Origin: Verrucomicrobiia bacterium
GTDB lineage: Bacteria; Verrucomicrobiota; Verrucomicrobiia; Limisphaerales; UBA1319
DNA: 64,000 nt
Reading direction: 5' to 3'
Assembly: GCA_963664225.1 (NCBI GenBank)
Contig: OY760937.1
Coordinates: forward strand, 160,001 to 224,000
Shown here: positions 2 to 34,521 of the stretch, one piece after another
Layout: every line of letters starts with the position of its first letter
Numbering within the stretch: position 1 is the stretch's first letter
The notes under the pieces: generated by a model
What the model saw: only the letters and a program-made list of their open reading frames with translations
Told to the model about the DNA's origin: nothing
The model's database searches: none
Made by a program: the position numbers and the translations under genes

Positions 2-3000
2 TTTGCCGTTTTTCTCTATTCCAAACAACAACAGGCCCTGATGGATGGCGTGGATGCCAAATTGGAGACTGCGGCACGGATGGCCCAGGCCAATTTGCCT
101 GCCAACTACCACGACCGCATCGCCGGGCCGGGCTCGATTTCGGATCAGGAATACCAGGGCATCGTGGATCGCTTCAACCGTTTGTGCAAGAGCTTGGGAT
201 TGGAATACCTGTGGAGTGTGATGCCATTGGATGGCAGGATTGTATTCACCAGCGCCACATCCCCCGACAAGGAGGTCGGAAACAGAAAGCACGCGGCCTT
301 TCTGGAGGTGCATTCCAATCCAGGGCTTTACACGGACGCGCTCAGAAGCAAAACCAAGACGGTTCAGATCAATGAGGACCGATGGGGGAGTTTGAGGGTC
401 GTGCTGATTCCCTATCAGGATCAAAGAGGCCGGCCCTATTTGATGGGGGCGGGAATGCGGCTGTCCGAGGTGGACCGCGCGTTGAACGATCTGGTCCTCG
501 AGTGCGCGGTTGGAGGGGTGTTTCTGTTTCTCGTTAGCGTGGCCGGCATCTACCTGCTGGCAGGCCTCCTGTCGCGGCCGGTGGAGAGGCTGACCGAAAC
601 GATCAAGGCCATTGCAGCGGGAGATTTCACCCGGCAGGCGCCCGAGGATGGCGCGCGCGAGCATGTCCAGTTGGCGCGATGTTTTAACCAGCTAAACCAG
701 GCGGATCGGTGCCATATCCAGGAATTGACGCTGGAACGGGAGAACCTGCGCATTACGCTCCAGTCGATTGGGGACGGGGTGATCGTGACCGATGCCGCCG
801 GGCGCGTGGCGCGGATGAACCCGGTGGCGGAGCGGCTGACAGGCTGGCCTTTTGCGGATGCCGCGGGCAGGCCGTTGCTCGAAGTGTTTCGCATCGTCAA
901 TGCCCAAAGCCGCCAACTCGCGGACGATCCGGTCGCGCGCGTGTTGAAAACCGGCCTGGTGGTGGGTTTGGCCAACCACACCGCTCTGATCGCCCGGGAC
1001 GGCACGGAGCGTCAGATTGCCGACAGCGCGGCGCCCATCCGCGACGCGAATGCCCGGATATTGGGCGCGGTCATGGTCTTTTCAGATGTCACGGAGGCAT
1101 ACGCGATGCAGAAGGCCGTCCGCGAGGCTGAAGAACGATTCCACCTGCTTTTCGAGCGCATGATCGGCGGGGCCGCGCTGCATGAAATCATTTGCGACAC
1201 CTCGGGAAAACCCGTGGACTACCGGTTTCTGGAAGTCAATCCCGCATTCGAGCAACTCACCGGTTTTAAAGCGGCGGACGTCCTTGGGCGCACGGTGCGG
1301 GAGGTCATGCCGAAGGTGGAGCCGGACTGGATCGAGCGCTACGGACGCGTGGCCCTGACCGGCGCCTCGGACCGTTTCGATCACTATGCCGCGGAGCTGG
1401 ACAGGCATTTCTCAGTGGCGGCGTATTCGCCCAAACCGGGGCAGTTCGCCGTGGTGTTTCAAGACATCACCAGCGCCAAACGGGCGGAAGCCGCGCTGAT
1501 GGAGAGCGAGGCCCGCTACAAGAGCTATTTTGAAGAGAGCCAGGCCATCATGTTGTTGATCGATCCGGATACCGGCGCCATCGAAGAGGCCAACGCCGCC
1601 GCCGTTGATTTCTACGGATGGACCAAAGCGGAGTTGTGCGCGAAAAACATCGCCGATATCAACACCCTCCCCTGGGGGGACATTAAGGCGCAACTGGCCT
1701 TGGGGAATTCGGAAAAACGCAAACATCACTTCTTCAAGCACCGGCGCGCCTGCGGGGACATTCGCGATGTGGAGGTTTACAACGGACCCATCAAGGTGGA
1801 AGGCAAAACACTTTTTAAATCGATTGTCCAGGACATCACCGAGCGGAAGCAGGCGGAATTGAAATTGGAGCGCAGTCGCGCTGAGCTGAAGGCGGTGTAC
1901 GACCAGGCGCCGCTGTTGATGTGCGTGGTTGGCCGGAGCTGCGAGGTTCTGTATGGCAACCGCGCATTCACCGAGTTTGCAGGGCAATCCGGGGAGACAA
2001 TGCGCCCGGAAACCCCCGGCGCCGTGTTGCGGTGCATTCATGCGATCGAGGATCCCCGCGGATGCGGCTATGGCCACAATTGCGAATCCTGCGCCCTGCG
2101 GCTGGCCATGAAGGAAACCTTCGAGACGGGTTGCAGCCAGGAGGCCATCGAATACCGGACCACGTACCAGCGGGCGGGCATTATGCAGGAGATGGTCATG
2201 CTCGCATCGACATCCCTCATCGAAACCGGGGAGCAACCGGTGCTCCTGCTCTGTCTGGAAGATGTGACCGATCGCAGCCGGGCGGACCAGGCGCTCCGGG
2301 AGAGCGAGGCCCGCTTCCGCAGCTTTTATGAGCTGGGTTTGATCGGCATGTGGATTTCCACACTGGACAAGGGTTTTTCCCAATTCAACGACAGGCTTTG
2401 TGAAATCCTGGGATGGTCCCGCCAGGAACTGCCGGTCAAGAGCTGGTCGGAAATGACCCATCCGGAGGATCTGCCCGCCGACGTGGCGCTGTTCGAGCAG
2501 GTTCTTTCGGGGGTCAGGGAGGGATATTCGATGGACAAGCGGTTCATTCGCAAAAATGGGGAGGTTGTTTATACCTCCATGTCCGTGCGGTGCGTGCGCA
2601 ATCCGGACGGCTCGCCAAATCATTTTGTGGGCATGATGCAGGATATTTCGGATCGGAAGCGGAGCGAAGAGGTGATGAGCGGTTCCCTGCGGGAGAAAGA
2701 GGCACTGCTCAAGGAGGTGCATCACCGCGTCAAGAACAACCTTCAGATCGTCAGCAGCCTGTTGCGTTTGCAGGCGGCTCAAATCGATCATCCCATGGTC
2801 GCCGCCGCGCTGCGGGACATGCGCAACCGGATTCGTACCATGGCCCTGCTGCATGAGAACCTGTACCGCTCGGAAAACCTGGCTCAAGTAAACCTGGCCG
2901 AGTATTTGCAGGGTGTCTGCGCGCAGTTGCTTCGGTCGATGGTGTCGCAGCCGGGGCTGGTGAGATTGGAGATGAATATAGCCGCCGTGAGCCTGGATGT

Positions 3001-3331
3001 GGGGCAGGCGGTTCCTTGCGGTCTGCTGATCAATGAATTAGTTTCTAATTCTCTTAAACACGCTTTTCCCCAGGGCCGCTCTGGAGTGGTTCGCGTGGAG
3101 TTGCAGCCGGTGCCTGAAGAACGCTCGCTGCGATTACGCGTGTCCGATGACGGCGCGGGGCTGCCACCGGGATTCGATCTTCATGCCGTGCACAGCCTGG
3201 GGCTGCAACTGGTGGCCGATCTGGCCCGTCAGCTTCATGGCATCCTGGTGGCCTGGTCAGATAACGGGGCCGTTTTCGAGGTGGTTTTTGAGCCGATAAG
3301 CAATTATACCATGGCAACTGCGAATGAATAA
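2..3331 (+). CDS. HAMP/multi-PAS sensor histidine kinase (HisKA_2 type), 5'-truncated by window
   Basis: Frame is open back to the window start; TM + HAMP, several PAS/PAC repeats, EVHHRVKNNLQ H-box, NELVSNSLKHAF, DDGAG. Confidence 0.9.
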   Translation, partial: FAVFLYSKQQQALMDGVDAKLETAARMAQANLPANYHDRIAGPGSISDQEYQGIVDRFNRLCKSLGLEYLWSVMPLDGRIVFTSATSPDKEVGNRKHAAFLEVHSNPGLYTDALRSKTKTVQINEDRWGSLRVVLIPYQDQRGRPYLMGAGMRLSEVDRALNDLVLECAVGGVFLFLVSVAGIYLLAGLLSRPVERLTETIKAIAAGDFTRQAPEDGAREHVQLARCFNQLNQADRCHIQELTLERENLRITLQSIGDGVIVTDAAGRVARMNPVAERLTGWPFADAAGRPLLEVFRIVNAQSRQLADDPVARVLKTGLVVGLANHTALIARDGTERQIADSAAPIRDANARILGAVMVFSDVTEAYAMQKAVREAEERFHLLFERMIGGAALHEIICDTSGKPVDYRFLEVNPAFEQLTGFKAADVLGRTVREVMPKVEPDWIERYGRVALTGASDRFDHYAAELDRHFSVAAYSPKPGQFAVVFQDITSAKRAEAALMESEARYKSYFEESQAIMLLIDPDTGAIEEANAAAVDFYGWTKAELCAKNIADINTLPWGDIKAQLALGNSEKRKHHFFKHRRACGDIRDVEVYNGPIKVEGKTLFKSIVQDITERKQAELKLERSRAELKAVYDQAPLLMCVVGRSCEVLYGNRAFTEFAGQSGETMRPETPGAVLRCIHAIEDPRGCGYGHNCESCALRLAMKETFETGCSQEAIEYRTTYQRAGIMQEMVMLASTSLIETGEQPVLLLCLEDVTDRSRADQALRESEARFRSFYELGLIGMWISTLDKGFSQFNDRLCEILGWSRQELPVKSWSEMTHPEDLPADVALFEQVLSGVREGYSMDKRFIRKNGEVVYTSMSVRCVRNPDGSPNHFVGMMQDISDRKRSEEVMSGSLREKEALLKEVHHRVKNNLQIVSSLLRLQAAQIDHPMVAAALRDMRNRIRTMALLHENLYRSENLAQVNLAEYLQGVCAQLLRSMVSQPGLVRLEMNIAAVSLDVGQAVPCGLLINELVSNSLKHAFPQGRSGVVRVELQPVPEERSLRLRVSDDGAGLPPGFDLHAVHSLGLQLVADLARQLHGILVAWSDNGAVFEVVFEPISNYTMATANE

Positions 3332-6300
3332 GACGCGCATCCTAATTGTGGAAGACGAGGCCATTGTGGCTTTGGACATCCGTCGTCAACTAGCCGATCT
3401 GGGTTACGAACCGGTGGCGCACACGATGCAAGGTGAGGATGCCGTGACGCTTGCGGGGAACTTGCGCCCCGATCTGGTCCTCATGGATATCCAACTGGCG
3501 GGAGAAACGGACGGCATCGCCACCGCACAGGAGATTCGTCAGCGGTTTTCCATTCCTGTCGTCTTTCTGACCGCTTTCGCGGGGGAAGAGACCCTGAAGC
3601 GGGCCAAACTGGCCGAACCTTACGGCTATATCATCAAGCCGTTCGAGGATCGCGATCTGCGCACGGTGATTGAGATGGCCATTTACAAGCACCAGGCGGA
3701 AAGAGATTTGAAGGAGGGCCACGCGGCGCTGACGGCCATTGTTCAGGGGGCCATGGATGGGTTTTATTTCATCGATGGCCAGGGCCGTTTTCTGGATGTC
3801 AACGAGGCGTATTGCCAGATGACCGGCTATTCCCGGGAGGAGCTGCTGCGAATGTCGATCAGCGATCTGGCTGTGGACGAGACGCAGGAGCAAATCCTTG
3901 CCGATATCGCCAATCGGTTGCAGAACGGATTCAAGCGCTTTGAGAGGCGGCAACGCTGCAAGGATGGGCGCCTGGCGGACATCGAGGTCAGCCCCGGTTT
4001 TATTCCAGGAGACAAGCCCCGGTTGTTTGGTTTCGCCCGTGACATCACCGATCGCAAGCGTGCCGAGGAGGAGCGAGAGGCCACGCTGAAGCTGCTCAAT
4101 CTGGTGAATAGTGAGAACGACCTCCACGGTTTAATGGAGGCGGCGACCATTTTATTGCGGGATTGGTCCGGCTGCACCGCGGTGGGCATACGATTAAAGG
4201 AGGACAAGGATTATCCCTATTTTGAAACGCGTGGATTTCCTCCCGAATTTGTCGCTGCTGAAAACAAGTTATGCCGGTATGATGCGAGCGGCAATCCGGT
4301 TTGCGACGATCTGGGAAATCCCGCGTTGGACTGCATGTGCGGCAATGTCCTCTGCGGAAGGTTTGACTCCGCGCTGCCATTTTTCACGGAACACGGCAGT
4401 TTCTGGACCAATTCGACGACGGCGCTGCTTGCCACCACCCCGCAGGAAGACCTGCAGTCGAGCACCCGGAACCGTTGCAATGGGGAAGGTTATGAATCGG
4501 TGGCCTTGATTCCATTGCGAGTGGGGGCTGTCACCCTCGGACTGCTCCAGATGAACGACAGTCGAAAGGACCGTTTCACACCGTACACCATTGGATTACT
4601 GGAGCGAATGTCGAACAGCCTGGCCGTTGCCGTGGCGCATCGCCAGGCTCAGGAAAAAGTCCTCGAAAGCGCGACCAAATTCCGCTCCTACATCCAGAAC
4701 GCTCCCATCGGCATCGCCGTGGCTGACCGTGAGGGCCGCTATGTGGAGGTGAATCCGGCCGTGGCGGACATGCTGGGGTATTCCGAGGAGGAATTTCTCA
4801 AGTTGCGTGTTCACGATGTTCTGGCCCCCTCCAAAGTGGCGGAGGGATTGAGCCTCTTCCGAAAACTTGTCGAGGAGAATGCCGCTTCCGGCGAGAAGCT
4901 GCTCCTCAGAAAGGACGGGACCGAATTTTGGGCGATGGTTTCTTCAGTAAGGTTGAATGACAATCGCTTCATGGCCTTCCATCAGGACATTTCCGCGCGC
5001 AAGAACGCCGAACAGGAAGCCCTGAGCGCCGCATCCTTGCTGGAGGCCGCTTTCGAATCCACGGCCGATGCCCTGCTCATGTCCAACCGTGACGGGCTCA
5101 TGACGCATTATAATCATAATTTTGTCGAGTTATGGAATCTTCCCAAAGAAGTGCTTGCCAGCGGAGATGAAAAGTTGGCCATCGAAGCAGTGCTCGAAAA
5201 AGTCAGGGAGCCGATTGGCTTTAAGAAACGCATTCTGTATCTCTACGAACATCCCGAGGAGGATGCATTCGATATGGTGGAGTTAAAGAACGGGCGCATT
5301 CTGGAGAGGTATTCCAAATCGTATCGTGTCGGAGGCAGGGTGGTGGGCCGTGTGTGGAGCTTTCGTGACGTCACCAATCGCAAGCGCCTTGAGGACCAAT
5401 TGCGCCAGGCCCAGAAAATGGAGGCCGTGGGGCAGTTGGCCGGTGGGGTGGCCCACGATTTCAATAACATCCTCGCAGTGATTCTCATGCACCTGGGCTT
5501 GCTCCAGGAAGAGTCCGCGTTGAGCGAGGCTGTTCGCGGTTCCCTCAGGGATCTCACGACGGAGGCCCAGCGCGCCGCCGCGCTCACCCGTCAACTGCTC
5601 GCGTTCAGCCGCCGACAGATCATCCAGATCAAGCCGGTGGACCTGGATGTGCTGGTGGAGAATTTGCTCAAAATGCTCCGGCGGTTGCTCGGCGAGCACA
5701 TTACATTGGATTGGCAATGCGAATCCGGCCTGCCCCTGCTCAATGCCGATCCGGGCATGGTCGAGCAGATCGTTATGAACCTGTCCGTCAACGCACGGGA
5801 TGCCATGCCCGGCGGCGGAAGCATCACCATTAGGGCAAAGCCCGTACGCATCGAGGAAAACGGGGCCGGTAATCATCCGGAGAGCCGTGCTGGTAATTTT
5901 GTGCGGTTGGATGTCATGGACACCGGCTGCGGTATGGATGAAGGGGTCCTCAAACACATTTTCGAGCCATTCTTCACCACCAAGGAAGTGGGCCGCGGGA
6001 CTGGTTTGGGGCTTTCGACCGTGTATGGCATTGTCAAACAACATGGTGGATGGATGGAAGTCGAAAGTGTGGTTGGCAAGGGGAGCTCCTTCCATGTCTT
6101 TCTGCCCGTGTGCGCCTCCGTCAGGCCCGGTGAAAACAACAACAAATCCACGCCTGTGGTCGGAGGCAGGGGCGAAACCATTCTCGTGGTCGAAGACGAA
6201 ACCGCGGTGCAGCAGCTTGTCCGCCGCACCCTGGAGCGCAACGGATACCGCGTTCTCCAGGCCTCCAGCGGACCTGAGGCCCTGGGTCTGTGGAGGCAAT

Positions 6301-6560
6301 ACCGCGCGGACATCGACCTGCTCTTTAGCGATGTCGTCATGCCCCACGGGATGACGGGCTACCAGCTCGCCGATTCCTTGCGCAAGGACAAGCCCGGTCT
6401 CAAGGTCATTCTTTCGACCGGCTATAGCGATAAACTCATTGAGTTTGGCAGGCAGGGCATACAAACCTTTTTCGTTCTCGCAAAGCCCTACACTTCCTCC
6501 GCGTTGCTGGCCGCCATACGCAATACCCTTGATAAGGGCAGCGCCATTGACAAGACCTGA
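3324..6560 (+). CDS. Hybrid REC-PAS-GAF-PAS histidine kinase/response regulator
   Basis: N- and C-terminal receiver domains, AHDFNNIL H-box, FEPFFTTK/GTGLGL; overlaps upstream kinase. Confidence 0.92.
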   Translation: MNKTRILIVEDEAIVALDIRRQLADLGYEPVAHTMQGEDAVTLAGNLRPDLVLMDIQLAGETDGIATAQEIRQRFSIPVVFLTAFAGEETLKRAKLAEPYGYIIKPFEDRDLRTVIEMAIYKHQAERDLKEGHAALTAIVQGAMDGFYFIDGQGRFLDVNEAYCQMTGYSREELLRMSISDLAVDETQEQILADIANRLQNGFKRFERRQRCKDGRLADIEVSPGFIPGDKPRLFGFARDITDRKRAEEEREATLKLLNLVNSENDLHGLMEAATILLRDWSGCTAVGIRLKEDKDYPYFETRGFPPEFVAAENKLCRYDASGNPVCDDLGNPALDCMCGNVLCGRFDSALPFFTEHGSFWTNSTTALLATTPQEDLQSSTRNRCNGEGYESVALIPLRVGAVTLGLLQMNDSRKDRFTPYTIGLLERMSNSLAVAVAHRQAQEKVLESATKFRSYIQNAPIGIAVADREGRYVEVNPAVADMLGYSEEEFLKLRVHDVLAPSKVAEGLSLFRKLVEENAASGEKLLLRKDGTEFWAMVSSVRLNDNRFMAFHQDISARKNAEQEALSAASLLEAAFESTADALLMSNRDGLMTHYNHNFVELWNLPKEVLASGDEKLAIEAVLEKVREPIGFKKRILYLYEHPEEDAFDMVELKNGRILERYSKSYRVGGRVVGRVWSFRDVTNRKRLEDQLRQAQKMEAVGQLAGGVAHDFNNILAVILMHLGLLQEESALSEAVRGSLRDLTTEAQRAAALTRQLLAFSRRQIIQIKPVDLDVLVENLLKMLRRLLGEHITLDWQCESGLPLLNADPGMVEQIVMNLSVNARDAMPGGGSITIRAKPVRIEENGAGNHPESRAGNFVRLDVMDTGCGMDEGVLKHIFEPFFTTKEVGRGTGLGLSTVYGIVKQHGGWMEVESVVGKGSSFHVFLPVCASVRPGENNNKSTPVVGGRGETILVVEDETAVQQLVRRTLERNGYRVLQASSGPEALGLWRQYRADIDLLFSDVVMPHGMTGYQLADSLRKDKPGLKVILSTGYSDKLIEFGRQGIQTFFVLAKPYTSSALLAAIRNTLDKGSAIDKT

Positions 6561-12225: not shown

Positions 12226-12693
12226 TTAGCCTGGAAGCGGGAGCGGCCGGTCTTTGGGACGAAAAACCCAAACCCATTCTTCGGCGCGTTCGCATAAGCC
12301 GCTCCTCACAGGATTCATCAGAATGTAATTTGTCTTTTCTTGCATTTCCCAATGGTTCCGCAGCCGATGGTCGAAGAAGTCACGTTGCCATTTCACGCCG
12401 CATTTAAGAGCTGCGAACTTCTTCCAGTTCTTGAGAGCTGTTTCCATGCCTGGTTCCTGGGGAAACATCAGAATCGCATGCAAATGGTCGGGCATGAGCA
12501 GACAAAGGCGGCAGTGCCAGACGAATTGGTAGTGATTGTGCGTTATCGAGGCCAGGACGGTGTCACCGATACCAGCGCGGCAAAGTTGATTTTTCCCTGG
12601 CGGCGCACAGTTGATGGTGACGAAAAAGTGACTGCCTTCAGCGACCCATTGTGGGATCTTATGCGGAAGCCGTTTACGAACTGGCAGATCCAT
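12226..12693 (-). mobile_element. REP-associated tyrosine transposase (RAYT, Y1 HUH)
   Basis: RKRLPH, FFVTIN, MPDHLH (HUH), WQRDFFDHRLR, YILMNPV; flanked by REPs. Confidence 0.88.
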
Positions 12694-16421: not shown

Positions 16422-18680
16422 TCAAATGTGCGTGGCGATGTTACCCTGCAGGCAATCTTTGACGGCTTGGGCAAGCGCGGCCGGCTGGAACGGCTTCTGG
16501 ATAAAGGCGACCCCGTTGCGCTCGGGAATTTCCTTTATTTGACCTGGGAATATATAACCGGTGGCGAAAAGGACTTTGAGGTTCGGCTGTTTTTTCCAGA
16601 GGCGGTCGGCCAGTTGACGGCCGGAAATGCCCTCTGGCATCACCATGTCCGTCAGTAGCATCTCGATATGATCCGAATGGGTATTCCACAATTCCAACGC
16701 GGCGTGGCCATTCTTTGCCGCAAGCACCTTGTAGCCCTGGCGGGTGAGAATTTCCAGCTCCAGGTCGCGCAGCGCGTCGTCATCCTCGACGATGAGGAGG
16801 GTTTCATTGCCGCGCAGTGCGGTGATGGTGGAGGATGGGGCTGGCTGGCTGGCTGGGCTTTCCACATTTTCCGGCCAATAAACCCGGAACGTGGTGCCGA
16901 CGCCAAGGCGGCTTTCCACCTCGATCCAGCCGCCGTGCTGTTTGACAATGCCATAGACTGTGGCCAGTCCCAGACCAGTGCCTTTGCCAACATCCTTCGT
17001 GGTGAAAAACGGATCGAAAATGCGGTTAACGATTGAGGGGGCAATGCCGCAACCCGTGTCGGAAATGGTCAGGCAGACGTGGCGCCCCAGGCGCGCCTCG
17101 GGTTGCTGGCGCACAAAGGCCTCGTCCGCGATGAACAGCGACGTGACCAGGCGTAACACTCCTCCCTCCGGCATGGCGTCCCGTGCGTTGACCGCCAGGT
17201 TGATGACGACTTGTTCCACCATCCCAGCGTCCGCGCGAATCCCAGGCAGCGAGGGGCTGCAGGACACTTGCAGCGAAATGTGCTCGCCAATAACCCGCCG
17301 GAGCATATCCAGGATTTGATCGAGGACCTCGTTGACGGCGATGACGCGCAATTGCATGAGCTGCTTGCGGCTGAAGGCCAGGAGCTGATGGGTCAGATTG
17401 GCGGCCCGTTGAGCGGCGCCTGTGATGTGGTTGACGGAGTCGAGCGATTCGGCGCTCAGCTCAGGGTCGCTGCTCAGCAGGTCGGCGTGGCCCTGGATGA
17501 CGGTGAGCAGATTGTTAAAATCGTGGGCCACACCGGCCGCGAGCTGGCCGATGGACTCCATTTTTTGCGACTGGCGCAACTGTTCCTCGAGATTGAGTTT
17601 TTCAGTAATCTCGCCGGCGTAGCAATGGGCCACATGAATTTGCGGAATCGGAAAAAACGACCAGGATATCGTGCGGTCATTGCGCTGGGTTTCCAGACGC
17701 AGCTTGTTCGTGCCGGTGCGCAGGCATTCAGTCACGATCCTGGACGAATCAGGCGGGAGCATTTCCTCCGGCGAGGCGTAACCCAGCGAACGGGCCAATT
17801 CGTGGGTGGCCTCGTTGCAATAGACCATCCGGCCGTCCTCGGCGAATTCGAGCACCGGGTTGGGATTCCACCGGGGGAAAGCTGCCAGCTTGCGCACCTC
17901 CTCCTCCGTCCGCTTGCGCTGTGTGATGTCCCGGATTGCGGCGATGCGTCCCGTGCGCCCGTGGTAACGCGTTTCCCGACCGCGAATCTCCATGACAAAG
18001 CGCGAACCGTCCTTGCGCAAGCCGATCGATTCGAAAGGGGTGTCCCGACCGTCCTTGATATGCTGGAGGGATATTTCATGGGTTTCCGGTGCGGTCCAAT
18101 CCAGCACCGGGCGCCCGATCATTTCCTCCAATTCGTAACCGAACATCCGCGCGTAATTCGGGCTGGCATCCAGCAAAATGCCGTCGGCATGAATGCAGAC
18201 TCCCTCGAAGGAGGCCTCCGTGAATCGCCGGAAACGCTCCTCGCTTTCCCGCAAGGCCTCCAGCGCCTGTGCCTTGTCCAACCGATCCTTCCATTTCACA
18301 CGGGCCGACAGAATGGCGGGCGCCAGCCGGGTCAGATGCTCCTTGATGACATAGTCCCAGGCTCCAGCCTTGATGCAATCCACCGCTGTGGACTCATTAA
18401 TCGAACTGGTCACCATGATGAACGGGGTCAAAGGCGCCACTTCCAGGGCGATGGCCAGCGCATCGGCTCCCGTAAAATGCGGCAGGGCGTAATCGGAAAG
18501 AATGATATCCGGCTTGAATTCCGCCAGCCCCTTGCGAAAACCGGCCTGATCGTCCACATGCAACAGCTCGAACTGCAATCCGGCATGCTTCAGCTCCCGG
18601 TGCGTTAACTCGGCATCGGCGGGCACATCCTCCAAATGGAGAATGCGCAATCGTGAATCGGCTATGTAATCTTGCTGCAT
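16422..18680 (-). CDS. Hybrid REC-PAS histidine kinase/response regulator
   Basis: Receiver, [19 protein letters not shown]-terminal receiver. Confidence 0.92.
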
Positions 18681-21190: not shown

Positions 21191-21392
21191 CAATTCCCTG
21201 ATCCTGTTCATCCTATCTATCCATGTTAAGAATCCCATTGCCGCATCCTGTTGGAATAACCGTGTCTTCCGGCTCTTCCGCGTGTCCTAATACGAGACAT
21301 TCAAACCGCGCTTCATGACATTCCCTTTACAGAAAGGCCTGAATACGCGGTATTTTCATCGTGATTATGGGGAGTTTACTGGGAGTTGACAT

Positions 21393-21408
21393 TGGCACGG
21401 GGCTTGCT
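21393..21408 (+). promoter_or_regulatory. sigma54 (-24/-12) promoter of pilin 1
   Basis: TGGCACG-gggc-TTGCT, consensus match. Confidence 0.85.
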
Positions 21409-21421
21409 AACGTTACCCCAA

Positions 21422-21493
21422 GCGGTTGGTATGAGGCGATCTGTGGACCGAACATGTTATCATATAAAATACCTCATACCGGGTTCACGCCGC
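21422..21493 (+). ncRNA. Candidate structured 5' leader RNA (copy 1)
   Basis: ggtatgagg/cctcatacc stem, gtggacc/ggttcac pseudoknot pairing, conserved in copy 2. Confidence 0.45.
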
Positions 21494-21524
21494 GTTAAGT
21501 AAAACAACAAAAAAAGTAAAACGT

Positions 21525-21887
21525 ATGCGTACGCAAACCTCGCGGAAATCCGCCTTCACCCTGGTTGAAATCATGATCGTCGTGGCCATCATCGGCTTGC
21601 TGGCCGCGATCGCCATTCCTAACTTCGTCAAGGCCCGCCAGACCGCTCAGAAAAATGCTTGCATCGCGAATTTGAAGCAGATTGACGGTGCCATTGAACA
21701 ATATGCGTTGGAAAATAAGATAGCCACAGGAACGGCGGTTGCCATGACCGCCATTACCGGTGCGACAAACTACATCAAAGTTGCACCCAGTTGCCCTGCC
21801 ACAGGAACGGCTTATACCGGGGCTAACGTTGGTACACAACCTGTTTGCCCTTCCGCTGCGACGTATCCTGATCACAAGCTTCCGTAA
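21525..21887 (+). CDS. Type IV pilin-like protein 1
   Basis: AFTLVEIMIVVAIIGLLAAIAIP N-methylation motif. Confidence 0.92.
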   Translation: MRTQTSRKSAFTLVEIMIVVAIIGLLAAIAIPNFVKARQTAQKNACIANLKQIDGAIEQYALENKIATGTAVAMTAITGATNYIKVAPSCPATGTAYTGANVGTQPVCPSAATYPDHKLP

Positions 21888-21936
21888 TGCGGAAAGTGGC
21901 AACATAAGATTTGTTGCTCAGGCATTTTATTAAGCG

Positions 21937-21979
21937 AAAGGCTTGGAGGACGAAAATCCTCCAAGCCTTTTTTATTTTT
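21937..21979 (+). terminator. Intrinsic terminator after pilin 1
   Basis: aaaggcttggagga/tcctccaagccttt stem followed by T-run. Confidence 0.85.
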
Positions 21980-22174
21980 GAAGCCAGGTGTTGAATTGCA
22001 GTCCATTGTGGGTTAAATGAGCGGAATAGTTGGCAACGCGCTTCATGCGTTTATTGTCTCGATCCAAGGCATGTAAATTTAATAATGGACGTGTTCATTC
22101 CGCTGCAGTGTTTCCTGCTTTCATTTCAGGTTTAAACTCATACTTTTGTATTCAGTTCGCCTCCTGTTTGATAT

Positions 22175-22190
22175 TGGCACGAGACTTGCT
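22175..22190 (+). promoter_or_regulatory. sigma54 promoter of pilin 2
   Basis: TGGCACG-agac-TTGCT. Confidence 0.85.
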
Positions 22191-22204
22191 TTCGTTATTC
22201 TCGT

Positions 22205-22276
22205 GCGGTCGGTGTGAGGTTATCAGTGGACCGAACATGTTATCATATAAAACACCTCATACCGGGTTCACGCCGC
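22205..22276 (+). ncRNA. Candidate structured 5' leader RNA (copy 2)
   Basis: ggtgtgaggt/acctcatacc stem, same pseudoknot pairing. Confidence 0.45.
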
Positions 22277-22306
22277 GTTAAAAAGCACAACAAAAAAGTT
22301 AAACGT

Positions 22307-22669
22307 ATGCGTACTCAAACCTCGCGGAAATCCGCCTTCACCCTGGTTGAAATCATGATCGTCGTGGCCATCATCGGCTTGCTCGCCGCGATCGCCATCC
22401 CCAACTTCGTCAAGGCCCGCCAAACCGCTCAGAAAAATGCTTGCATCGCGAATTTGAAGCAAATTGACGGAGCCATTGAACAATATGCGTTGGAAAATAA
22501 GATAGCCAGCGGCACGGCGGTTGCCATGACGGCCATTACCGGTGCGACAAACTATATCAAAGTTGCACCCAGCTGCCCTGCCACTGGTGTGGATTATACC
22601 GGTGCTAGCGTCGGTACACAGCCTGTGTGCCCTTCTGCTGCGACTTATCCTGATCACAAGCTGCCTTAA
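22307..22669 (+). CDS. Type IV pilin-like protein 2 (near-identical paralog)
   Basis: Same prepilin motif; 4 aa differences from copy 1. Confidence 0.92.
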   Translation: MRTQTSRKSAFTLVEIMIVVAIIGLLAAIAIPNFVKARQTAQKNACIANLKQIDGAIEQYALENKIASGTAVAMTAITGATNYIKVAPSCPATGVDYTGASVGTQPVCPSAATYPDHKLP

Positions 22670-22722
22670 GGTCGGCAGTGACAACATAAGTTTGATTGCT
22701 TTGATTTGTCTTTTAATGAATC

Positions 22723-22755
22723 GCTTGGAGGGGGGAACTCCTCCAGGCTTTTTTA
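22723..22755 (+). terminator. Intrinsic terminator after pilin 2
   Basis: gcttggagg/cctccaggc stem + T-run. Confidence 0.7.
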
Positions 22756-22815
22756 TGTTGGACTATCAGTTCTCAAATTTGAGTGGGTATTTTCTAACAA
22801 TGAACATCTCTAAAC

Positions 22816-23169
22816 ATGCATATCCGGCATCGGCAAAGGCGCCAGGCATTTACATTAGTGGAGATAATGGTGGTGATTGCGATCATTGGGCTGATAATGG
22901 CCATCGTAATTCCCAATTTCATCAAGACCCGGCAAATGGCTCAAGCACGAGTGTGCCTTGAAAATATCACACAAATAGAATCCGCAAAAACGCAATGGGG
23001 TTTGGACGCACTAAAAGGAAACGCCGATACTCCCACTGTTGCGAATCTGTTTGGATCGACAGGATATATTCGGGTTGAACCCAAATGCCCAGCCAACAAT
23101 GGAAGTTACGATCTGAAAACTTTGGGTGAAAGAGCAGTCTGTGCCATTCATGGGGATGGATTGCACTAA
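22816..23169 (+). CDS. Type IV pilin-like protein 3
   Basis: AFTLVEIMVVIAIIGL motif, divergent paralog. Confidence 0.88.
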   Translation: MHIRHRQRRQAFTLVEIMVVIAIIGLIMAIVIPNFIKTRQMAQARVCLENITQIESAKTQWGLDALKGNADTPTVANLFGSTGYIRVEPKCPANNGSYDLKTLGERAVCAIHGDGLH

Positions 23170-31930: not shown

Positions 31931-32124
31931 TGCCAAAACCTAATTCCCAGTGCCCCAGTCGTCAATTAGAAGCAACGACACCCGCACCGCCCGTCCTTAG
32001 TCCCGCAGGGACGCCCGAAAATAGCCCACCGTTTCAACGGTGGGTCTGGAGTTTGGCCCCGGACTAGACAAACCGCTGGTGGGATTATTATTTTGTTGCG
32101 CGTGGTCTAGTTATGTGACTAGAT

Positions 32125-32358
32125 ATGGCCACTATGGGTTATCCAACTAAAGTCCAGCTCATCCAACGCAAGCAAAGCCAGCAATGGTACATCAACTTCC
32201 CCTCCGCCATCGCCCAGGCCATGGATTTCGACAAGGGAGAGGATGTCCGGTGGACCATTGCCGACAAAGGTCACCTCATTCTCTCGCGCGACCAGGTCCC
32301 CCCCAACCCGGTCGCTTTAAAAAAAACGCCTCCCTCCTCGACCAAATCGAGGAGCTGA
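32125..32358 (+). CDS. IS OrfA, AbrB/MazE-like small DNA-binding protein
   Basis: INFPSAIAQAMDFDKGEDVRW swapped-hairpin pattern; ends after TTTAAAAAAAA run. Confidence 0.65.
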   Translation: MATMGYPTKVQLIQRKQSQQWYINFPSAIAQAMDFDKGEDVRWTIADKGHLILSRDQVPPNPVALKKTPPSSTKSRS

Positions 32359-33761
32359 TCGATCTATGTGCTCCCGGCTTCTCTTCCCCGCAGGCCTGGG
32401 CTCGGGGCCGCCGCCATCTGCTTTCCCAGTTGGTGTGCTTCGGCCGCCACACCATTACAGGGCTCTTGCGCAATCAAAACCGCACCCAACAGGATTGGAC
32501 GGCCGATTACCGCTTCTATTCCGAGGATCATTTCGACGAGGACTGGGTTTTCGACCGGATCCGCGCCCAAATCGAGCAGGACTTCCCGTCCAAGGATCCT
32601 CTGGTCGTGGCCATGGACGACTCGCTCTTGCGCAAAACCGGTCCGCGCATCTTTGGCTCCCGTTTTCAGCGTGATCCCTTGAGCCCCCCATTCCAGGTCA
32701 ACTTTGTCCGGGGTCTGCGGGTCCTGCAGATTTCTGCGGCCGTGCCGCTGGGCTCACAAGGGGCGGCACGGATGATTCCGGTGGACTTCCAGCATGCGGC
32801 CCTGCCCGCCAAGCCGCGCAAGGATGCCGCGCCAGAGCGCTGGGCCGCCTACCGGGAGCAACGGGCCAAAATGAATATCAATGTGGCGGGCCGCAATCGC
32901 CTGACCCACATGCGCCGGCAAATGGATCAAAGCGGTTCGAGCCAGCGGCCGCTGATTGCCACCCTCGATGGCCGCTTCACCAATGGCACCGTTCTGGGGC
33001 AGATTCCGGAGCGGACCACCCTCATTGGCCGCGTGCGCAAGGACTCGGCCTTTTACTTTCCCCCGACAGGGCAGGCCGCGCACGGCCGCAAACGCAAGTA
33101 TGGGGCCCACTGCCCCACGCCGGAACAACTGCTCAAGGACCCGGCCCAACCCTGGCAAACCGTGGAGGCCTTTGCGGCAGGCAAACGCTACCAGTTCCGG
33201 GTCAAAACCCTGGCGCCCGTCTACTCGCAGATGGACAAGGCCGGCCACTCCCTGCGTCTGGTCGTCATCGAGCCGGTGGCTTACCGCCGTACCAGGTCCA
33301 GCAAGCTGGAACGGCGCGAACCGGCTTTTCTCATCTGCACTGATCTGAATCTGCCCCTGGAAAAGGTGGTGCAGTTTTATCTCTGGCGATGGGATATCGA
33401 AGTCAACTTCCGGGATGAGAAAACTCTTCTGGGGGTCGGACAGGCCCAGGTTCGGTCCGAGGCTTCCAATCAGAATGCCCCGGCGCTGGCCGTGGCAGCC
33501 TACGCGCTACTGCTCCTGGGCGCCGTCAAAACCTACGGTGCCGACGGCCAGCCGGAGACCTTCAAACGCCCGTGCTGGTACAAACGTAAGCCCGGCCAGA
33601 GAGCCACAACCAACGAATTAATCACGCAATTGCGTTATGAACTTTGGGCTACAGCCCTAACCACCCATTTTCTGCCGCTCTCATCAAATACCATTCCCAC
33701 CCAGAACGGCAGAAAATGCGATCCACCACTAGAAGCCGCCATCTTTCTAAGTCTTAACTGA
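32316..33761 (+). CDS. DDE transposase (OrfB, -1 frame to OrfA)
   Basis: AMDDS, LDGRF, YLWRWDIEVNFRDEK (Y-2-R-3-E-6-K); start set at the slippery site. Confidence 0.88.
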   Translation, partial: FKKNASLLDQIEELIDLCAPGFSSPQAWARGRRHLLSQLVCFGRHTITGLLRNQNRTQQDWTADYRFYSEDHFDEDWVFDRIRAQIEQDFPSKDPLVVAMDDSLLRKTGPRIFGSRFQRDPLSPPFQVNFVRGLRVLQISAAVPLGSQGAARMIPVDFQHAALPAKPRKDAAPERWAAYREQRAKMNINVAGRNRLTHMRRQMDQSGSSQRPLIATLDGRFTNGTVLGQIPERTTLIGRVRKDSAFYFPPTGQAAHGRKRKYGAHCPTPEQLLKDPAQPWQTVEAFAAGKRYQFRVKTLAPVYSQMDKAGHSLRLVVIEPVAYRRTRSSKLERREPAFLICTDLNLPLEKVVQFYLWRWDIEVNFRDEKTLLGVGQAQVRSEASNQNAPALAVAAYALLLLGAVKTYGADGQPETFKRPCWYKRKPGQRATTNELITQLRYELWATALTTHFLPLSSNTIPTQNGRKCDPPLEAAIFLSLN

Positions 33762-33876: not shown

Positions 33877-34323
33877 TCATTCCAAATCCTGCGCCACATA
33901 CACCATCCCGTGCTTTTTCAAGAACGCTTCGACTTCCTCCTTAAACGTCATCCTGTGATGATGCCCGGCCTGGCCTTGAATGTATTGGGTCGTATCCTCG
34001 ACGCCGGAGATGCCGATGCTGAAAGCTCCATAACCCTCCTGCCATTCGAAATCCCGATGTTCCTTGAACGTGTCATGAACCCATTTCGATGAATTTCCTT
34101 TGAGAAGCTGGACGGTCTTCGCCACCGAAAGCGTCGAAGGAATCGACATGAGCACATGCACATGATCCTCCACACCGCCGATCACGAGCGTCTTTATTTT
34201 GTTTTCGCGGGCAATGCCGCCGAGGTAGGGCCAGAGGCGTTGTTGCATCTCGGATTTAATGACCGGGCGGCGTTCCTTGGTCGCCCACACACAATGCATC
34301 AGACAACTGGCGAATGAATGCAT
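33877..34323 (-). mobile_element. tnpA: IS200/IS605-type Y1 transposase (tnpA only) flanked by REP-like hairpins
   Basis: HCVWATKER, EDHVH, WQEGYGAFS, YIQGQ. Confidence 0.88.
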
Positions 34324-34339
34324 GATGAATCTTTCGTTA

Positions 34340-34521
34340 TCTTTCGTCCCTGACGGGACTCATTTTGTTTCTTACTTTAACCCAGCGATAAATCGCTGGG
34401 CTATTATCGAGCGTCCCTACGGGACTTGAATTCAGACACCGTGCGCATTCGTGCCATTCCAGCAATAAATCGCCGGGATACCGTTAACCGCCTCCACCTA
34501 AGTCCCGTCAGGGACGAAAGA
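34340..34521. repeat. REP-like hairpin cluster, inverse of the 31999-33849 flank
   Basis: gtccctgacgggact, cccagcgataaatcgctggg, gtccctacgggact, agtcccgtcagggacgaaaga. Confidence 0.8.

Follow-up and report, generated by a model that had tools for sequence, protein, structure and literature searches.

What occupies the space between two closely similar pilin genes and the sigma54-type promoters upstream of them is the question raised by this locus, for which the first-pass annotation had proposed a pseudoknotted leader RNA. Here the window denotes the whole 64,000-nucleotide stretch of DNA that was analysed, and the features of the pilin locus all lie on its + strand. The locus consists of two tandem units with the same layout: a TGGCAC-N5-TTGCT element, a spacer of ∼13–14 nt, a 72-nt leader, an A-rich linker of 30–31 nt, a gene for a 120-aa prepilin-type protein and an intrinsic terminator. 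The first gene (21525..21887; its product contains ...SAFTLVEIMIVVAIIGLLAAIAIPNF...) is followed by a terminator at 21936..21981, the 15-bp stem of which extends to 21971 before the T tract. The second gene (22307..22669), whose 120-aa product is 97% identical to the first, is followed by a terminator at 22723..22757 (stem 22723–22748, then a T tract). The range 21393–22306, to which attention was originally drawn, spans both leaders, the first pilin gene and its terminator.

The pilin proteins score above the cut-offs of Pfam N_methyl (29.4 bits; cut-off 21.2) and NCBIfam TIGR02532 (IV_pilin_GFxxxE; 27.3 bits; cut-off 16.3), and they have the N-terminal cleavage/methylation motif G-FTLxE and the hydrophobic helix of prepilin-type proteins; with the equivalog models for ComGC, PilA and GspG, they fall below the cut-offs. 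Immediately downstream of the second unit comes a third prepilin-type gene (22816–23169), which encodes 117 aa, shows 44% identity to the first two and has neither the pseudoknot leader nor a sigma54-type element. The neighbours of the pilin genes are prmC and lipA, neither pilus machinery nor regulators, and four PilT-family ATPases are encoded elsewhere in the genome. Three large histidine kinases with PAS domains, of the sensor or hybrid type, are encoded at 41–6560 and 16422–18680, at most 20 kb upstream of the pilin genes.

In copy 1 of the leader (21422..21493; 93.4 bits with model R1, described below, and with covariation in homologues), three helices can be read from the sequence: an outer helix P1 (GCGG, 21422–21425, with CCGC, 21490–21493), a longer helix P2 (GGTATGAGG, 21428–21436, with CCTCATACC, 21472–21480) and a pseudoknot between the loop of P2 and the strand joining P2 to P1 (GTGGACC, 21443–21449, with GGTTCAC, 21482–21488, including one G-U pair). 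A conserved loop with an AAU-type and an A-rich segment lies between these paired parts. Copy 2 (22205..22276; 92.8 bits with R1) reads likewise, with P1 at 22205–22208 and 22273–22276, P2 at 22211–22220 (GGTGTGAGGT) and 22254–22263 (ACCTCATACC) and the pseudoknot at 22226–22232 and 22265–22271. P1 comprises 4 bp, P2 9–10 bp and the pseudoknot 6–7 bp. The differences between the copies preserve pairing, an A>G change giving a G-U pair and a C>T change an extra U-A pair, and a 27-nt run (GTGGACC...ATAAAA) is identical in both. The first-pass annotation had described all of this accurately: the stems in both copies, the pairing of the loop with the segment after the stem, the outer gcgg/ccgc, the 27-nt core and the pairing-preserving changes. 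Its caution about paralogs was also justified: two paralogs prove little on their own and cannot show covariation. The source genome holds these two copies only. Minimum-free-energy z-scores of single leader copies were weak (−0.45 to −1.40) and uninformative. A leader peptide starting at an ATG within the loop (MLSYKIPHTGFTPR) was considered and rejected, the ATG not being conserved among homologues.

Because a blastn search with the leader reached only 3 of 61 related genomes, one of them the window's own, a covariance model was needed. For model R1, six copies were used, and P1 and P2 were the only helices included. At E ≤ 0.01 the model had hits in 108 of the 151 genomes from the order to which the window belongs (80 of the 110 high-quality genomes; 82 of 108 genera). 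Positive genomes carry 1–7 copies, often spaced 600–750 nt apart, and the leaders often form tandem arrays, the longest with six or seven copies. This order is Limisphaerales, also named 'subdivision 3', and five genomes within it that lack the motif have only more distant pilins (31–50% identical). With model R2, 150 genomes from elsewhere in the phylum yielded no match when only 30 first-look candidates per genome were scored with strict filters. Pilin relatives with 49–64% identity do occur outside the order (61 of 101 genomes at E ≤ 1e-10), and with the filters off, R2 gave a best hit of 15 bits, and none before the gene, at 11 loci with pilin relatives of other classes. Judged by these searches, the leader family is apparently confined to a single order of Verrucomicrobia.

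An exact-pattern scan of 185,579 species genomes returned at least 130 matching stretches; among the 80 matches listed, 71 have Verrucomicrobia-type titles (Verrucomicrobiota, Verrucomicrobiia, Limisphaerales or 'subdivision 3'), 7 have other titles and 2 are unspecific. The seven oddly titled matches among those listed (L114, L128, L129, L155, L164, L167 and L188) are assigned to Acidoferrum, Bifidobacteriaceae, Bifidobacterium, Actinomycetes, Pseudomonadales and Binatia, and two of them, L128 and L167, hold two leader copies each, spaced as in pilin arrays. Mislabelled or mis-binned contigs seem likelier for these titles than real spread of the leader.

The pilin relatives of other classes have upstream regions of their own kind. 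Several are preceded by a sigma54-like promoter element, and in some of them, for example at L099, L101, L102 and two of the three leaders in L104, a lineage-specific stem starts 0–4 nt from the predicted transcript start; in some of these outgroup leaders (for example L100 and L104) an A-rich linker follows the structure. At L104 (G237:C3), which has three tandem pilin genes, the first and third share a similar 75-nt leader behind a sigma54-like promoter, with a 5′ stem, then an A-rich linker, and with GUGAAU/GUUGAAU-like words. The L104 leader may represent a separate leader family.

The fold was evaluated on 109 leader copies, which form the second alignment, made after 60 further regions had been added (the first alignment comprised 48 hits from 30 loci). 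Standard pairs form in 93.8% of the cells, compared with 82.2% in column shuffles, 0 of 500 of which reached the observed value; because the copies share ancestry and the alignments were fitted to P1 and P2, these shuffle figures overstate significance and are not probabilities. The more honest comparison is the control in which the partners were slid, where only 31–44% of cells paired. Both sides of the pair have changed in 4 of 4 pairs in P1, 10 of 10 in P2 and 6 of 8 in the pseudoknot. The covariation on which the leader proposal had been made to depend beforehand is therefore present in the homologues, with double changes in 20 of 22 pairs. In the first homologous copies, the P2 sequences were wholly different and the pairing was kept.

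P2 (columns 12–22/100–109) interleaves with the pseudoknot (columns 36–43/112–119), and both covary, as in a pseudoknotted RNA. Because the pseudoknot is absent from either search model, its covariation is independent of the alignment method. Its GTGAAC/GTTCAC pairing is replaced by GTGGAC/GTCCAC, GTGAGC/GCTCAC or GTGAAT/ATTCAC; at two positions, A-U has become G-C, in 10 copies at one and in 3 at the other; C-G has become U-A once, and position 7 shows at least four pair types. The eighth pair forms in 42% of copies and is probably not general. Several further pairings were considered and rejected. A fifth pair of P1 (4/126) was paired in 69% of copies versus 65% after shuffling (236 of 2000 shuffles reach the observed value), with pairs beyond it no better. 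An extra pseudoknot pair (28/98) was paired in only 37.5% of the 48-copy set. An extra helix in the loop, including an 'AC..GT' mini-hairpin noticed by eye, was unsupported in a mutual-information scan of all column pairs, which was topped only by pairs of P1, P2 and the pseudoknot. Across the alignment, G-U and U-G cells (110) exceed A-C and C-A cells (31), which fits an RNA that folds from the sense strand of the pilin genes. Overall, the alignments indicate that the leader pairings go far beyond chance once homologues are added, and the pilin leader is a genuine uncatalogued structured RNA of ∼72 nt, a three-helix pseudoknot.

In the homologues, the parts of the leader follow one another in a fixed order. 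The 5′ strand of P1 (GCGG) is followed by UU, the 5′ strand of P2, AAU-NN and the 5′ strand of the pseudoknot (GUGAAC plus 1–2 nt); then come a loop of ∼22–26 nt, the 3′ strand of P2, 0–2 nt, the 3′ strand of the pseudoknot (GUUCAC), a G and the 3′ strand of P1 (CCGC). The 5′ strand of P2 has 10 nt and is hypervariable except for a conserved GGC at its top, and the length of P2 is constant. The GUG/CAC core of the pseudoknot is nearly invariant. The loop has one G conserved at 99%, frequent AAU/AAC triplets and an A-rich tail, and the unpaired U10, A26, A27, U29, G53, U57 and U62 (numbering of alignment A5) are each 87–99% conserved. Almost no nucleotides separate the 3′ strand of P2 from the pseudoknot strand, or the latter from P1. 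From these segment lengths we infer that a classical coaxial H-type geometry is impossible and that the helices pack compactly side by side, with the pseudoknot stacked on P1.

The sigma54-type −24/−12 elements (TGGCAC-N5-TTGCT) lie at 21393..21408 for copy 1, with a predicted +1 at about 21419–21421, and at 22175..22190 for copy 2, with a predicted +1 at about 22201; the predicted +1 falls 3 and 4 nt before P1. This places the leader downstream of a sigma54-type promoter and ahead of the pilin start codon, with its beginning near the predicted +1, as had been proposed. With rpoN encoded elsewhere in the genome, consensus and sigma factor are both in place for sigma54-dependent promoters, and a sigma70 consensus scan of the window gave nothing convincing at either leader. 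The arrangement recurs among the homologues. A GG-N10-GC element with at least 8 of 10 matches to TGGCAC/TTGC lies upstream of 80 of the 109 leaders, its first T being 27–30 nt before P1 in 66 of these 80 (mode 28, in 37 copies). From this spacing, with GC at −13/−12, the +1 is predicted to lie ∼2 nt before P1, leaving 1–4 unpaired nt in 66 of 80. Ten further leaders have an element with 6–7 matches, and ∼19 of 109 have no recognisable sigma54 element; several of the latter have, as judged by eye only, TTGACA-like and TAnnnT boxes with a spacing that would give the same start. The promoter geometry thus predicts that the leader RNA forms the first nucleotides of monocistronic prepilin-type mRNAs. 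In three public metatranscriptomes, 5–6% of the sampled words were found, and contigs at 80% likeness cover only the conserved N-terminal part of the pilin coding sequences (21545–21690 and 22329–22475), not the leaders or the start sites.

At its other end the leader is closely tied to pilin genes. Among the 102 copies with at least 150 nt of downstream sequence, 98 are followed by an FTLVEI-type coding sequence within 150 nt; three of the remaining four have an FTLVEI-type gene at 210–461 nt, and one has an FTLVEV prepilin. In L037 and L048 (G157 and G022, of one genus), the leader lies ∼460 nt before the pilin gene instead of 20–50 nt, and the insert of ∼370 nt contains no convincing ORF. 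The linkers between P1 and the start codon in the window (21494..21524, 31 nt; 22277..22306, 30 nt) are A-rich; that of copy 1 is unstructured and, in this genome, has no strong Shine-Dalgarno sequence. Linkers of homologues (15–47 nt from P1 to ATG, typically 20–25) are also A-rich, usually with GAAAGG 8–12 nt before the ATG, and contain no terminator and no hairpin. No clear helix that would sequester the Shine-Dalgarno sequence was found in the leader. Pairing of the 3′ strand of P2 with its own ribosome site gave a weak signal (own-pair mean −5.97 kcal/mol, permutation p = 0.009, relatedness uncontrolled), so sequestration by this strand was rejected and kept as a hint only; with its 10 bp, P2 would probably outcompete an alternative pairing of about −6 kcal/mol.

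The fold matches no catalogued family. Searched over the whole window at gathering score, Rfam 15 gave only two tRNAs and two Acido-Lenti-1 hits, all outside the leaders; at E ≤ 10, the region 21200–22900 gave five weak hits, none overlapping either leader, and the c-di-GMP-I and c-di-GMP-II models had no hit in either. The earlier view that this is not a known riboswitch is thus borne out. No such motif turned up in full-text literature searches. Neither PMC5737381 nor PMC11109978 mentions Verrucomicrobia, prepilin, pilus, pili or secretion in its main text; the 224 motifs of PMC5737381 are listed in its supplement. Judged by Rfam 15 and these main texts, the pilin leader RNA apparently constitutes an undescribed RNA family.

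The two Acido-Lenti-1 matches, at 31999–32045 (−) and 34380–34426 (+), score 55.3 and 52.6 bits and are the two arms of a 47-nt inverted repeat, between which lie an IS701-family transposase (32184–33761) and an IS200/IS605-family transposase (33877–34323). Related AGTCCC..GGGAC hairpin repeats recur nearby. The Acido-Lenti-1 'sRNA' may itself belong to mobile DNA, as a terminal or REP-like repeat. Elsewhere in the window, a REP-associated tyrosine transposase gene (12226–12693, −) scores 75.7 bits, just under the cut-off of 80.

Known systems resemble the leader in part. The class II c-di-GMP element of Clostridioides difficile acts via a terminator-type platform. According to the available text of PMC11477304, such riboswitches control the type IV pilus cluster of that organism and, like the leader described here, are structured, pseudoknot-containing leaders directly before a type IV pilin gene cluster; in the searches made here, no other documented form of control of pilin genes by an RNA leader was found, and this one is the nearest in function. 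The window leader differs in having no sequence or structure match to it and no platform that we could find. The aptamers of SAM-II, preQ1-II, fluoride and guanidine-III riboswitches are similar in size, in pairing a hairpin loop with a 3′ strand and in having conserved bases near the junctions. However, no Rfam model of these matches, and the leader has a link of 0–2 nt from P2 to the pseudoknot, a loop of ∼22–26 nt on the other side, closure by P1 and segment lengths that would exclude the coaxial H-type geometry.

Two further comparisons concern the 5′ end itself. The 5′ untranslated region of E. coli ompA carries a 5′-terminal stabilising stem-loop, and such elements are simple hairpins with little sequence conservation. 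The leader shares with them pairing that starts a few nucleotides from the (here predicted) 5′ end, a highly expressed envelope-protein mRNA, a single-stranded ribosome-loading region after the fold and a genome with 5′-end-dependent RNases, but it differs in being a three-helix pseudoknot whose conserved loop bases are kept order-wide. The phage T4 gene 32 operator, which is bound by its own gene product, a single-strand-binding protein, combines a 5′ pseudoknot with an unstructured A/U-rich tract extending from it to the ribosome site. The leader and its A-rich stretch up to the ribosome site resemble this arrangement, except that a pilin is not expected to bind RNA.

The reading that we tentatively prefer, and hold with slightly less than even confidence, is that the leader is a cis-acting module that sequesters the 5′ end, constitutively or conditionally, and thereby sets the stability of the pilin mRNA. 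Transcription from the sigma54-type promoter, or in a minority of copies from the sigma70-like boxes seen by eye, would begin ∼1–4 nt before P1. Strands of the 3′ part of the leader would pair in turn with the 5′ strand of P2, with the loop segment to form the pseudoknot and with the 5′-terminal GCGG to form P1, the marginal 4-bp P1 forming only once the pseudoknot is locked. The compact fold would then act post-transcriptionally in cis, burying the 5′ end of a highly expressed pilin mRNA and shielding it from 5′-end-dependent decay, and the unstructured A-rich linker would leave the ribosome site open. RNase E/G and RNase Y are both encoded in the genome, above their family cut-offs; RNase J has no match above cut-off in the genome, so an exonuclease-blocking role like that of viral xrRNA is unlikely. 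If the fold were also recognised by a ligand or a protein, protection would be conditional.

This 5′-terminal fold is favoured because, irrespective of the type of promoter, pairing in most copies begins at the first nucleotides predicted for the transcript; because nothing like an expression platform lies downstream and the ribosome site is single-stranded; because pilin is a structural protein needed in bulk and 5′-end-dependent RNases are encoded; and because other lineages place different structures at the same position. Against it are the 4 bp of P1 and the ∼19 of 109 copies without a recognisable sigma54 element. The overhang predicted in the window, 3–4 nt, is also near the upper limit for 5′-end protection in E. 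coli. Because a plain hairpin would suffice to protect a 5′ end, a plain stabiliser fails to explain why the pseudoknot, the loop bases and the GUG/CAC core are conserved across the order. The seven conserved unpaired bases together with the nearly invariant core suggest recognition, and a ligand or protein therefore likely reads the fold. Constitutive protection of the 5′ end is no less likely than ligand sensing.

The 5′-terminal fold has two close rivals, a classical riboswitch and a protein operator. A new riboswitch class, in which the pseudoknot would be the aptamer for a small molecule such as a second messenger of surface behaviour, and binding would alter translation initiation, Rho access or decay, is possible, if on the unlikely side. 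The compact multi-helix fold with covarying helices of fixed length and seven conserved unpaired bases is aptamer-like, it is strictly tied to one gene class, and the available text of PMC11477304 offers a precedent in the class II c-di-GMP riboswitches at the C. difficile pilus cluster. A riboswitch would, however, be expected to act through a platform, and none was found: there is no terminator, linker length varies from 15 to 47 nt, and the weak pairing between P2 and the ribosome site (p = 0.009, relatedness uncontrolled), which hints at one, is unlikely at about −6 kcal/mol to beat the 10-bp P2. Nor does an enzyme or transporter gene behind the leader hint at a ligand, and no known riboswitch model matches at E ≤ 10. 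A riboswitch-like class that dispenses with a conventional platform, which we regard as rather unlikely, would combine sensing with the 5′ end: a signal, either a second messenger or a pilus or envelope cue, would lock the pseudoknot onto the 4-bp P1, and locking would hide or expose the mRNA 5′ end, setting pilin output via 5′-end-dependent decay.

A lineage-specific protein partner would be consistent with the confinement of the leader to one order, and a dedicated RNA-binding protein, or a global one (for example Hfq or a CsrA-like factor), might dock on the pseudoknot or the A-rich loop and repress or activate translation via the adjacent single-stranded linker, in the manner of T4 gene 32. 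The 5′ pseudoknot with its A-rich stretch, the nearly invariant core and the AAU/AAC triplets of the loop are in keeping with such an operator. No candidate protein was found, and the neighbouring prmC and lipA are not regulators; we consider an operator quite unlikely. That the repeats act at the DNA level, as transcription-factor sites downstream of the promoter, or reflect mere recent duplication, is highly improbable. At the DNA level GTGAAC...GTTCAC is indeed an inverted repeat, and the copies in the window are paralogs of recent origin, but in 82 of 108 genera the three interleaved helices stay complementary through compensatory changes, P2 keeps its length with a hypervariable sequence, and the 110 to 31 excess of G-U over A-C cells points to the transcribed sense strand.

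Soil, peat and fresh water hold Verrucomicrobia of the order Limisphaerales in abundance, and these bacteria have received little study. The leader heads what look like the main pilin genes of this order and, being absent from Rfam, adds a new family to the catalogue and offers a concrete way into the control of pilus production in this order. Binding of a ligand or a protein would make it a new class of sensor; a leader that does no more than protect the 5′ end would be a stabiliser of unusual elaboration and conservation.
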